From the NCBI GenBank assembly GCA_964016885.1, contig OZ024751.1, forward strand, positions 23,436,001 through 23,500,000: a stretch of 64,000 nt of DNA. Direction: 5' to 3'. Both the position numbers and the translations under genes were made by a program. Positions 1,342-12,194 of this stretch are shown one piece after another; position 1 is the first letter of the stretch, and each line of letters begins with the position of its first letter. This DNA is from Eledone cirrhosa (lineage: Eukaryota). The notes beneath the pieces are model-generated. The model made no database searches. It saw only the letters and a program-made list of their open reading frames with translations, and was not told the DNA's origin.

Positions 1342-1541
<200 letters not shown>

Positions 1542-1731
1542 GATAATTTAATATATCAACTAACATAGGCGCACAGATGTACGTCCATGCCAGCAAATAC
1601 ACAGGTTATGTCATAGTACCTAGGTGGTTCAATGCAGGAGGGTGCAGAACAATAATATAAAAGACGTAAAATAAGAAAATATCTTTTAAAAAAATTTTTA
1701 AAAAATTTTTTACTTACTTACTTAAATTTTC

Positions 1732-1813
1732 ACTCCAACTAATTAGTTTCTGCAATGGGATAAAGACAGTTACATAATCCAACTGTCGAGAATTCATTGC
1801 GTCATCAGGGAGT
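1732..1813 (-). ncRNA. Type I hammerhead ribozyme (family A)
   Basis: Reverse complement of the 2779-2860 motif. Confidence 0.85.
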
Positions 1814-2778
1814 CTATTCTCAGCTGAGCCTCCAGGCAATGCGCGGACACTGGCGGCTCATATAAAAATAATAATTCGGTAGAAAGAACAGCTAGGCGAG
1901 GACTGGATTCTATGTACTGAAATTCTCACTGCTTCCAGTCAAATGGCCGATTCTAAAGAATCAATCACGTGACATAGAGGCCAGTTAGAAGGAATGGGAT
2001 GGTAAGATGACTGACGCCTACTAACACCCCAAAAAAAATTTTGAAGTGGTTTTGGCAGGTTTGCTCGACAAATCAGTGATTTGGAGATAAATATAGATAA
2101 TTTAATATATCAACTAACATAGGCGCACAGATGTACGTCCATGCCAGCAAATACACAGGTTATGTCATAGTACCTAGGTGGTTCAATGCAGGAGGGTGCA
2201 GAACAATAATATAAAAGACGTAAAATAAGAAAATATCTTTTAAAAAAATTTAAAAAAATTTTTTTACTTACTTACTTAAATTTAAAAAAAAAAAAAAAAT
2301 TTTTTTTAAAAAAAAATAAAAAAAAAAAATAATTTTTTTTAAATTTTTTTAAAAGATATTTTCTTATTTTACGTCTTTTATATTATTGTTCTGCACCCTC
2401 CTGCATTGAACCACCTAGGTACTATGACATAACCTGTGTATTTGCTGGCATGGACGTACATCTGTGCGCCTATGTTAGTTGATATATTAAATTATCTATA
2501 TTTATCTCCAAATCACTGATTTGTCGAGCAAACCTGCCAAAACCACTTCAAAATTTTTTTTGGGGTGTTAGTAGGCGTCAGTCATCTTACCATCCCATTC
2601 CTTCTAACTGGCCTCTATGTCACGTGATTGATTCTTTAGAATCGGCCATTTGACTGGAAGCAGTGAGAATTTCAGTACATAGAATCCAGTCCTCGCCTAG
2701 CTGTTCTTTCTAATGAATTATTATTTTTATATGAGCCGCCAGTGTCCGCGCATTGCCTGGAGGCTCAGCTGAGAATAG

Positions 2779-2860
2779 ACTCCCTGATGACGCAATGAAT
2801 TCTCGACAGTTGGATTATGTAACTGTCTTTATCCCATTGCAGAAACTAATTAGTTGGAGT
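2779..2860 (+). ncRNA. Type I hammerhead ribozyme (family A)
   Basis: actcc CTGATGA c gcaatg..gacagtt/aactgtc..cattgc a GAAA ctaattag TT ggagt: stem I actcc/ggagt, extended stem II, palindromic stem III, GUU cleavage after 2855. Confidence 0.88.
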
Positions 2861-3024
2861 GAAAATTTAAGTAAGTAAGTAAAAAATTTTTAAAAAATTT
2901 TTTTAAAAGATATTTTCTTATTTTACGTCTTTTATATATATATATATATGTATATATATATGCATATATATGTGTGTATATGTATATATATGTATATATA
3001 CATACACACACACAGACACACACA

Positions 3025-3087
<63 letters not shown>

Positions 3088-3551
3088 TTACGAAACCAAA
3101 TAAATGCGTAGTAAAATCGAATGTGCGAAAGATCATGTGGTTTTACGAAACAGAATTCTAAAGCCACAGAGCCATGCATGCACCTAATAGTCTTAAAAAG
3201 GAATGGGAGATTAGGAAAAATGCTTCCTACCAGATAAACATTTTCTATCAAGAAATAGGAAAATGAACTCATTTTAGTTTGTTTTTATTGTTGCTGAAAT
3301 GTATGAAAAACAAGGGTTGGCTTGCATCAAACTATTTTCTATATATCTTTCTATGAAAAGACAAGGATTTTCCCGCTGGCAACACACCATAAAATAGAAG
3401 TAAGCTGCAATGAAAGCATAATAGCAGCAACGTTTTAAAAATAACGCCAGCATCATTTCTCTCAGAATAATAGCGAATCAACCACCTAAGGATTCGAATA
3501 TAACTGCAGAATACAAAACATTTGTTTGTACCACATCGAATGGCGTTGAAG

Positions 3552-3737
3552 AATATATTGTTCATCACATTTTGCTATAAGATATCGATAGAAAACAAGA
3601 AGAATATATAAAGATATATAAATGACGAAGAAAAATTCGCTTAAATTCTGTTATACACACGCACTATCTATCTATGTACCCTCTCTCACTCTCTTTCCCT
3701 CTCTCTCTTTCACTTTCTCTCTCTCTCTCTCTATCCA

Positions 3738-3808
<71 letters not shown>

Positions 3809-3933: not shown

Positions 3934-3980
<47 letters not shown>

Positions 3981-4170
3981 TAGATAGAGAGAGAGAGAGA
4001 GAAAGTGAGAGAGAGAGAGAGGGAAAGAGAGTGAGAGAGGGTACATAGATAGATAGTGTGTGTGTATAACAGAATTTAAGCGAATTTTTCTTCGTCATTT
4101 ATATATCTTTATATATTCTTCTTGTTTTCTATCGATATCTTATAGCAAAATGTGATGAACAATATATTAT
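3552..4170. repeat. Inverted duplication of flanking DNA (3552-3730 vs 3979-4170) around (TA)n tracts
   Basis: ttcatcacattttgctataagatatcgatag... is mirrored as ctatcgatatcttatagcaaaatgtgatgaa. Confidence 0.9.
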
Positions 4171-4227
<57 letters not shown>

Positions 4228-4961: not shown

Positions 4962-5205
4962 ATAATTGTTTCTACTTTAGGCACAAGGCCAGCAATTACC
5001 CAGTGCATTACTGGTATAACAATAATAATTGTTTCTACGTTTGGCACAAGGCCAGCAAATACCCAGTGCATTACTGGTACTTTATTTTATCGACTCTGTA
5101 AGGATGAAAGGCAAAGTTATCCTCGGCGGGATTTGAACTCAGAATGGCAAGGACCGTAACTCTATACATCAAAGCATGGCGTCCGACCCTCTACCAATAC
5201 TGCCA
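4962..5205 (-). mobile_element. Meta-domain-type tRNA SINE with duplicated 3' tail
   Basis: Reverse complement of the consensus at 63153-63342 (box A tggcagtattgg, box B gagttcaaatcc). Confidence 0.9.
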
Positions 5206-5227
5206 ATAACAATAATAATACTACAAC

Positions 5228-6262
5228 ATGTTCCACAAGAGGAGTGATGTCGATAGACTCTACTTAAGGAGATCTGAAGGTGGAAGAGGTCTTATCAGCA
5301 TAGAGGACTGTGTTCAGATGGAGAAAAACAACCTGCACAAATATGTGACTGGTAGTAGGGAGCCAATGCTTAGAATTGTACTGAAGGAGAGGACAATAGA
5401 CCAGGGGATGTCCAAGGAGGAAATAACAAGGAGAAAGAGCAACCTTCATGAAAAATTCCATCATAGTACCTTCTTCGAGAAAACTGATTCAGAGATCCAC
5501 AGACATAGAACTGGTTAAAAAGAGGAGACATTAAAAAGGCTACAGAAGGAATGCTAATGGCTGCGCAAGAGCAGGCCCTCAAAACGAAGTGGCTGAAACA
5601 CCATATTTACAAGGAGGAGGTCAGCCCACTGTGCAGGATCTGTGGAGAGAGAGAGGAAACTGTGGCTCACATTGTATCCGAGTGTAAACACCTAGCCCAG
5701 ACTCACTATAAAGGCTGGCGACATGATGTGATGGGCAGGGTGATCCACTGGCACCTATGCAAAGTAAACAATTTACCACATTCTGAGAAGTGGTATGAGC
5801 ATAAGCCAGTGTCGGTGATAGAAAACGATCAGGTGAAGGTACTGTGGGATTTTAGGATATAGACGGACAAGAAATTAGAACACAATAGACCTGACCTGGT
5901 GGTTTTGCACAAGGAAAAAAGATCGTGCCTGATTGTGGATGTGGCCTGCCCATTCGACACGAGAGTGCAAGAGAAGGAGAGGGAAAAAATTAACCGATAC
6001 CAGGACTTAAAGTGGGAGGTAAAAAGGATTTGGAACTGCCATGAAGTCAAAGTGGTCCCGATTGTCATAGGCGCACTAGGTACTATCTCAAAAAGTTTCC
6101 AGGGATGGTTAAAGAAAATTGGCCTCGCCACGCTTTTTGGAACGCTTCAAAAGGCATGCTTGCTGGGAACAGCAAGAATCCTCCGATACGTCCTGAATAT
6201 CTGAGGCTTCATTTCAACAAACTTTCCAGTTAACTAACATCATTGACTGAGACTCAAAGAAC
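5228..6262 (+). pseudogene. 5'-truncated R4/Dong-like non-LTR retrotransposon (end of RT region, CCHC knuckle, restriction-like endonuclease, 3' UTR) in (AAT)n
   Basis: DRLYLRRSEGGRGL; LMAAQEQAL; CRICGEREETVAHIVSEC; RHD; RPDLVV..IVDVACP..EKINRY..L; VPIVIGALG; frameshift and stop; ends at (AAT)n. Confidence 0.93.
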
Positions 6263-7120: not shown

Positions 7121-8332
7121 AAACAATGTTTCCATTAGTCTTTCCAAGTAAACAATGTTTCCATTAGTCTTCCCAAGGAAACAATGTTTCCATTAGTCTT
7201 CCCAAGGAAACAATGTTTCCATTAGTCTTCCCAAGGAAACAATGTTTCCATTAGTCTTCCCAAGGAAACAATGTTTCCATTAGTCTTTCCAAGTAAACAA
7301 TGTTTCCATTAGTCTTCCCAAGGAAACAATGTTTCCATTAGTCTTCCCAAGGAAACAATGTTTCCATTAGTCTTTCCAAGTAAACAATGTTTCCATTAGT
7401 CTTCTCAAGGAAACAATGTTTCCATTAGTCTTCCCAAGGAAACAATGTTTCCATTAGTCTTCCCAAGGAAACAATGTTTCCATTAGTCTTCCCAAGGAAA
7501 CAATGTTTCCATTAGTCTTTCCAAGAAAACAATGTTTCCATTAGTCTTTCCAAGGAAACAATGTTTCCATTAGTCTTCCCAAGTAAACAATGTTTCCATT
7601 AGTCTTCCCAAGGAAACAATGTTTCCATTAGTCTTTCCAAGTAAACAATGTTTCCATTAGTCTTTCCAAGAAAACAATGTTTCCATTAGTCTTTCCAAGG
7701 AAACAATGTTTCCATTAGTCTTCCCAAGTAAACAATGTTTCCATTAGTCTTCCCAAGGAAACAATGTTTCCATTAGTCTTCCCAAGGAAACAATGTTTCC
7801 ATTAGTCTTCCCAAGGAAACAATGTTTCCATTAGTCTTTCCAAGAAAACAATGTTTCCATTAGTCTTCCCAAGGAAACAATGTTTCCATTAGTCTTCCCA
7901 AGTAAACAATGTTTCCATTAGTCTTCCCAAGGAAACAATGTTTCCATTAGTCTTTCCAAGTAAACAATGTTTCCATTAGTCTTCCCAAGGAAACAATGTT
8001 TCCATTAGTCTTCCCAAGGAAACAATGTTTCCATTAGTCTTCCCAAGGAAACAATGTTTCCATTAGTCTTTCCAAGAAAACAATGTTTCCATTAGTCTTC
8101 CCAAGAAAATAATGTTTCCATTAGTCTTTCTAAGGAATCAATGCTTCCGTTGGTCTTCCCAAGGAAACAATGTTTCCATTAGTCTTCCCAAGGAAACAAT
8201 GTTTCCATTAGTCTTCCCAAGGAAACAATGTTTCCATTAGTCTTCCCAAGGAAACAATGTTTCCATTAGTCTTTCTAAGGAAACGATGTTTCCATTAGTC
8301 TTTCTAAGGAAACGATGCTTCTGTTGATCTTT
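7121..8332. repeat. 29-bp tandem satellite, ~41 copies (aaacaatgtttccattagtcttcccaagg)
   Basis: Head-to-tail units without spacers; internal palindrome ggaaaca-a-tgtttcc; the last units grade into a CORE-SINE remnant. Confidence 0.97.
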
Positions 8333-9042: not shown

Positions 9043-9471
<429 letters not shown>

Positions 9472-12001: not shown

Positions 12002-12194
12002 AGTTTTAATATAGATTAGATTCTACAGGACTAGAACTGTTTCATTCTTTAGAAATCATCATGATTCCTGATGATTTCTAAAGAATGAAACAGTTCTGTA
12101 GAATCTCATCTATATTAAAACTTTTATACTCTGCAATGTATTGAGTACCTTACTTACTGTGGTTACCTCCGACTCAACCCGGAATAACGTACGT
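12002..12194. mobile_element. Head-to-head HHR insertion in (TA)n (family C); other copies at 17955-18076 and 53909-53985
   Basis: Inverted arms; shared tail ...gagtaccttacttactgtggttacctccgactcaacccggaataacgt(TA)n. Confidence 0.85.
12063..12105 (+). ncRNA. Type I hammerhead ribozyme (family C)
   Basis: gattc CTGATGA t ttct aa agaa t GAAA cag tt ctg TA gaatc; stem I gattc/gaatc, GUA cleavage. Confidence 0.82.

Follow-up and report, generated by a model that had tools for sequence, protein, structure and literature searches.

The window (the whole 64,000-nt stretch of DNA analysed here) contains a dispersed repeat whose features support a real, young insertion of a non-LTR retrozyme. The reading we favour, at a probability of about 0.7, is that this copy is a young two-armed insertion made by the borrowed RT/GIY-YIG protein of a Penelope-like element (PLE), with one monomer RNA, circular or nicked, as the template. 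The retrozyme identity of the original prediction is supported by tandem units each carrying a type I hammerhead, by the lack of a coding frame, by the low GC content and by the PLEs resident in the same genome.

Structure of the window copy

The repeat search of the window detected a 197-nt direct repeat with a spacing of 554 nt (1533-1729 / 2087-2283, 98% identity) and an inverted repeat with arms of 638 nt (1655-2292 / 2300-2937, 98% identity). The resulting features are listed in Table 1, where phases of the 554-nt unit are counted from the base directly 3' of GTT (phase 1, position 2856). The claim that a 554-nt monomer was copied for more than one full turn in each arm holds, the arms measuring 1.35 and 1.10 units (predicted ~1.3 and ~1.1). 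Both arms read TAGTT^GGAGTG without a scar, confirming the seamless passage through the GUU cleavage site (2855), and the longest stop-to-stop frame fully within the element has 56 aa, in agreement with the predicted absence of an ORF; the frame listing shows no RT + GIY-YIG ORF of an autonomous PLE in the element. The unit has a GC content of 37%, below 50%, and the outer ends correspond to internal phases of the unit, with no LTR structure. Leaving out the A/T-scrambled centre (2284-2326), the arms differ at three positions, as expected for the recent insertion that had been proposed; the family itself is old, with copies at 70-78% identity.

Table 1 Features of the two-armed retrozyme insertion in the window.
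Feature	Positions	Strand	Description
Left target	1344..1541	.	(TA)n microsatellite
Left arm	1533..2283	-	751 nt, 1.35 units; phase 8 -> 554 -> 1 -> ~200 (read 2283->1533)
Left arm outer (sense 3') end, site B			...AAATTATC meets (TA)n via TATAT overlap
Tail between sites A and B	1541..1655	-	~120 nt, on the outer end of the left arm only
Type I hammerhead, left arm	1732..1813	-	predicted cleavage between 1737 and 1736
Head-to-head junction	2284..2326	.	43 nt of A/T runs linking the 5' ends of both arms
Right arm	2327..2937	+	611 nt, 1.10 units; phase ~26 -> 554 -> 1 -> ~82
Type I hammerhead, right arm	2779..2860	+	predicted cleavage after GTT at 2855
Right arm outer end, site A			...TTTTACGTCTTT meets (TA)n via TATAT overlap
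Right target	2933..3004	.	(TA)n microsatellite

An assembly artefact was considered and ruled out, because the same end rule is shared by 54 of the 55 mapped two-armed loci (window included) and a contig of run X1 (possibly the assembly's own sample) spans the arms, linking 1940 to 2714 on opposite strands. A transcript across the locus (1655-2937) would form a hairpin of ~600 bp (MFE -1085 kcal/mol), a possible substrate for RNA editing or silencing.

A predicted type I hammerhead ribozyme supported by covariation

A hammerhead can be read directly from positions 2779-2860. Its parts are a 5-bp stem I (ACTCC/GGAGT), CTGATGA (2784), an unpaired C and a 6-bp stem II, mismatched (C.A) at the base and with a second hairpin, of 7 bp, in loop II; the 3' part includes an extra A before GAAA, a 12-nt palindrome spanning helix III (2844-2855), and GTT at 2853-2855. 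Rfam, at its gathering threshold, gave no match anywhere in the window. The assignment as a predicted ribozyme is supported by covariation in an alignment of the window with 15 diverged copies (out of 22 representatives): 94.5% of the cells pair and 7 of the 21 pairs changed on both sides, while slid controls of the pairing reached at most 47.9% and none of 500 shuffles reached the pairing score. Stem II is 99% paired, with changes on both sides in three of its six pairs, and the hairpin of loop II likewise covaries; helix III is invariant by construction, because the rows were picked by its exact motif.

The four marks of PLE-type hammerheads described in PMC4209133 (an unpaired base 5' of stem II, a G10.1-C11.1 pair, a long helix II and a palindromic helix III) are all seen here, the G10.1-C11.1 pair in 15 of the 16 rows; the family's extra A before GAAA is without a counterpart in that description as far as it is available. 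In the folding models, the active fold of the monomer (-16.9 kcal/mol) is less stable than an inactive one (-21.6 kcal/mol), which, like the C.A mismatch of stem II, counts against the mechanism proposed below, and the duplex of the 12-nt palindrome contributes -9.0 kcal/mol; the palindrome duplex and the favoured inactive monomer fold would fit the predicted cleavage as a dimer (cf. the available part of PMC4209133). The circular fold of the unit reached -140.5 kcal/mol (z -4.3 against 40 shuffles).

Outer ends are fixed at two sites that pair strictly

The genome searched, a 3.0-Gb AT-rich animal assembly, contains 8,753 exact matches to the ribozyme motif, together with 925 A ends and 820 B ends matching exact end-plus-(TA)n patterns; reversed controls gave 0. 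Comparison of the unit with its own genome yielded 188 matches in 39 scored of 696 candidates. Motif-to-motif periods range between 508 and 581 nt, and arrays comprise up to ~10 units. Subfamilies reach ~70% identity with compensatory changes in the stems, and the older ones (70-90% identity) retain both end sites. Pieces of the repeat were also present in runs labelled as two other organisms.

We mapped 99 loci: the window, the 38 top matches, the first 40 B ends and 20 unpaired A ends on C1 (L128 was left out, having no match at the mapping threshold). Across these loci the sense 3' ends lie at phase ~82 (A) or ~200 (B), ~120 nt apart, overlapping (TA)n by TATAT, and the 5' (inner) ends spread over the entire unit. 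Among the 55 two-armed loci, 54 were A+B, none A+A, none B+B and one unresolved (L051); the one-armed loci comprised 23 A, 22 B and one unresolved, three of which (L083, L121 and L124) are probably A+B, because arms shorter than ~28 nt escaped the mapping. Inspection by eye of the first 100 listed places per end pattern gave 13 A+B pairs that lie head to head within 10 kb, and not one homo-pair; three close tail-to-tail pairs of A ends were observed on C1, outside the mapped loci. The original prediction had taken the different start phases of the arms as a sign of a circular template. The phases at which the arms end do differ, yet they are the two sites fixed throughout the family; being the known PLE tail signature, they are silent on circularity.

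Of the A arms, 28 of 54 are longer than 554 nt, and of the B arms, 26 of 55; the lengths of the two arms are not correlated (Spearman 0.19, P 0.18). B arms stopping at site A (phases 68-81), considered as a collision on one molecule, were too few to call (4/55). In nine loci (L113, L114, L115, L117, L119, L120, L192, L196, L198), site B is separated from (TA)n by a (CT)n stutter that varies, which could reflect repeated copying of the start site or later microsatellite growth.

One unit as the probable template of each insertion

Arms longer than 554 nt (about half of them, including both window arms) need a template crossing the ribozyme site, because a shorter arm cannot seed a seamless tandem. 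Of 254 passes through the cleavage junction, 244 were exact over 18 nt, six had substitutions, four were mapping artefacts and none contained an indel, so sloppy jumps between linear monomers are disfavoured. Several statistics, obtained from 99 of several thousand loci and with homopolymer and end columns masked in the variant, arm-difference and array analyses, are suggestive of one unit as the template per insertion: arms are about eight times closer to the other arm of their own locus (median distance 0.25%, 35 loci) than to other arms (2.05%); among variants present in at least four loci, 274 of 295 cases were fixed throughout the units; seven variants private to a locus were fixed in every unit of both arms; fixed differences between arms amounted to 3 in 3,209 columns at 14 loci, compared with 0.45% per column between young loci; and within-array changes recurred at another locus 9 times, against 8.5 expected by chance. 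The arm-specific fixed variants of two of the 14 loci, L064 and L106, speak against a single template. The power to separate the same molecule from the same source locus is limited, because 335 of 787 between-locus pairs of the young set are also free of any fixed-column difference. One monomer with a single A and a single B would explain why the two target ends never share a site. The circular template originally proposed is plausible on these single-unit bottleneck statistics, rather than on the start phases.

The same element and PLE machinery could instead have worked from a linear multimer that was left uncleaved after transcription of a homogeneous master array, with arrays homogenised and expanded locally and no circle at any stage. 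We regard this as unlikely, although seamless junctions would follow from it trivially and local block duplication is indeed seen: periodic variants in the long arrays of L031, L047, L054, L061 and L064 correspond to block duplication after or during insertion. Array length was consequently rejected as a count of RT turns, which it overstates, because long arrays also grew by local duplication. The inner ends cluster around the cleavage site: within 2 nt of it lie 6 of 156 (1.4 expected) and within 10 nt 18 (5.9 expected), and they peak at phases 7-10. A linear or nicked template would be expected to produce this; the inner ends of the window copy lie 8 and ~26 nt past the cleavage site. This clustering indicates that linear or nicked RNA was used at times, and it fits some linear RNAs under the multimer alternative too. 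What weighs against the multimer is that lineage variants must pass a bottleneck of one unit, to judge from the 274 of 295 fixed variants and the seven private ones fixed in both arms; the chance-level recurrence of within-array changes, suggestive in a sample of 99 of several thousand loci, points the same way. Monomer RNA stays our preferred template, and the DNA cannot tell a nicked from a ligated circle.

A second alternative, which we consider improbable, is that only the first arm was RNA-primed and the second is its fold-back (self-primed) copy, an origin put forward in PMC3846280 for head-to-head palindromes of PLEs. Variants common to both arms would be expected from such copying, in 45 of 54 loci one arm could be contained in the other, and mutually non-contained arms are rarer than chance (9 vs 15.1, P=0.025); still, those nine loci do not fit it. 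Four of the 55 junctions are symmetric within 1 nt and 14 within 30 nt, but the majority are asymmetric. Moreover, one-armed copies end at A in some cases and at B in others, which marks both as primary ends, and fold-back leaves the strict A+B pairing without a reason. Given the containment of arms and the symmetry of some junctions, fold-back may have acted at a minority of loci.

The insertions carry the signature of Penelope-like elements

PLEs are described in PMC8557442 and PMC3846280 as having an inverted 5'-truncated copy, a tail of 30-40 bp at one end and (TA)n targets. The corresponding marks (inverted 5'-truncated copy, partial tandem, tail at one end, microsatellite target) were found in 54 of the 55 two-armed retrozyme loci. 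According to the same sources, as far as they describe these elements, EN+ PLEs with a CX2-5CxxC linker (Neptune/Nematis type) and Naiads share with the retrozyme the partial tandems, the inverted 5'-truncated copy, the one-end tail, the (TA)n targets and the lack of a discernible TSD; in contrast to them, the retrozyme has no ORF, a tail of ~120 nt instead of 30-40 nt, a unit junction that coincides with the ribozyme site, and start sites inside the unit.

For Poseidon PAc, in vitro work showed that the PLE tail is delimited by two internal start sites of the RT (Frangieh et al. 2024, PMC11167929), and the retrozyme shares with that system, in the account available, a tail set by two such sites, a hammerhead upstream of them, and target strands both of which are cut and extended there. 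The in vitro work counts against our preferred reading in that it had uncleaved RNA as the main substrate and start sites equal on both strands, whereas strict A+B pairing is observed here; it likewise involved no homology between RNA start site and target, whereas A and B overlap (TA)n by TATAT.

Two-armed coding PLEs of the same genome follow the same rule. The RT+GIY-YIG elements L164, L168, L170 and L176 have the same A+B-type pairing with a 69-nt tail, and L161 has it with a tail of ~40 nt, making five out of five two-armed coding copies whose ends were read, all in (TA)n. The coding PLEs of the genome have a CxxC linker between RT and GIY-YIG, and the autonomous ones include RT+GIY-YIG frames of 844, 938 and 1096 aa. 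Long open RT+GIY-YIG frames of young PLE families are located at L159:4806-7622, L160:2488-5022 and L161:1775-5065, the L159 family having proteins 97% identical; these frames are candidates for the mobilising enzyme.

No homology between the unit and a coding PLE was detected in 50 GIY-YIG loci (of 10,596 candidates) by blastn, pairwise z-scores or a profile of 20 units; the best values were a pairwise z of 2.8 and an unrelated match to L166 with an E of 2.3. A short likeness of site A to the 3' end of the L176/L177 PLE family was lost in the profile search and was discarded. We infer the partner PLE by behaviour only, because no coding PLE examined shares the sequence of the unit, a point against the preferred reading. 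The original prediction held that fixed ends, as the 3' UTR of a coding PLE, would speak against a circle; the outer ends of the mapped copies are indeed fixed (at A or B, with variable inner ends), but none of the coding PLEs examined has the unit as its 3' UTR. That the repeat is the pLTR or 3' UTR of a coding PLE, and the loci its 5'-truncated copies, is largely refuted and very improbable: the ends and targets are of PLE type, the check covered 50 GIY-YIG loci out of 10,596 candidates, and at L111 a retrozyme 5' end lies directly against a coding PLE's 3' terminus, both on the same strand and without intervening (TA)n, but arms run on into further monomers (up to ~10) and never into an ORF, PLE-like coding sequence lies in the fetched flanks of 10 of the 99 loci and is never continuous with the unit, and the matches in the PLE loci L146 and L167 are separate old retrozyme copies past a (TA)n run.

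Proposed mechanism

In the preferred reading, insertion by a borrowed PLE protein from a single monomer, multimeric transcripts of longer arrays would cleave themselves, the 12-nt palindrome likely bringing them together as dimers, and the released monomer would be ligated or held shut as a nicked circle. The PLE-like RT/GIY-YIG protein would then copy the non-coding unit into a cut (TA)n run, one cDNA being primed per target end at the fixed internal sites A and B of the single monomer RNA, probably a circle. Each RT may travel a variable distance, often more than one turn, before the two cDNA 3' ends are joined head to head; priming at one end only would give a one-armed copy, and arrays could later expand as blocks are duplicated locally. 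Since its arms contain a single complete hammerhead each, the window copy would be a dead-end daughter, unable to release a monomer. In L1 twin priming, both target ends prime on one RNA, which gives an inversion; the retrozyme differs in its fixed priming sites and in arms that can each grow longer than the template unit.

A more specific version, in which two RT active sites copy a single RNA circle from two fixed positions and each uses one end of the cut (TA)n as its primer (double rolling-circle TPRT), is tentative, and we hold it to be somewhat short of probable. If true, the A+B rule would be a general explanation of the PLE tail and of the head-to-head inversion, and the first genomic fingerprint joining the retrozyme circle to the PLE machinery. 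The short template, the two mapped start sites, the simple target and the candidate proteins from the same genome make the circle question and the strand asymmetry of A and B testable in vitro.

Comparison with known retrozymes

The unit had been predicted to be a large retrozyme, and it is longer than the 150-450 bp repeats reported for coral, mussel and axolotl (Cervera and de la Pena 2020, PMC7229834), but it falls inside the 51-972 bp given for metazoan units in a preprint (Li et al. 2026, 10.64898/2026.07.22.740005). With the metazoan non-LTR retrozymes, as portrayed in these two sources, it shares non-coding tandem units with a type I hammerhead each, low GC (37%), thousands of copies, co-resident PLEs and a size within 51-972 bp. 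It differs from them in its dispersed two-armed head-to-head (TA)n insertions with two fixed RT-start-like ends, in exceeding 150-450 bp, in the extra hairpin of loop II, and in having no pLTR homologue in the 50 GIY-YIG loci; some retrozyme families are homologous to a PLE pLTR, according to the preprint.

We found no paper describing two-armed retrozyme insertions or a strict A+B rule in a search with subscription literature mostly outside it, and the supplement of PMC7229834 may list similar cases; the words "ribozyme" and "retrozyme" are absent from the text of PMC13282606 as available. The two-armed form with a 120-nt PLE tail and strict end pairing appears to be new; the class and the rolling-circle idea were already published. 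Metazoan retrozyme repeats have been said to contain no conserved motif pointing to the autonomous element that mobilises them (PMC7761336, in the part available), and the origin of the tandem and inverted structures of PLEs was called undefined in the accessible text of PMC8557442. Because thousands of young copies bear the PLE tail signature, the retrozyme is tied to PLE-type integration by mechanism and not by co-occurrence or homology.

Other elements in the window and the fetched loci

Other short or hammerhead-bearing elements were observed. Another family that targets (TA)n is represented at window 12003-12193 by a short insertion with two arms, one ~70 nt longer than the other; it contains a hammerhead-like CTGATGA...GAAAC at 12068 and has many copies in the fetched loci; at 9214-9400, a short head-to-head element lies between (TA)n runs, with one arm ~65 nt longer and copies elsewhere. 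Minimal hammerhead-like motifs (CTGATGA...CGAAAC) occur at window 25336 (+) and 48312 (-), and a different hammerhead-bearing element, ending ~150 nt past its cleavage site in (TA)n, is present at L165:433-774 and L166:8301-8760.

The window further includes a 233-nt inverted repeat (3549-3781 / 3939-4171; 94% identity, 100% over 96 unique nt) flanking simple repeats; a 29-bp minisatellite of 41 copies at 7121-8321 (matches 95%); and, at 5220-6250, the 3' part of a coding element terminating in (TAA)n-like repeats, presumably the end of a non-LTR retrotransposon. Two SINE-like copies (n=2; 474-567 and 5062-5156) have a mutual identity of 81%, and the SINE-like repeats of this genome may be similar to octopus ones.
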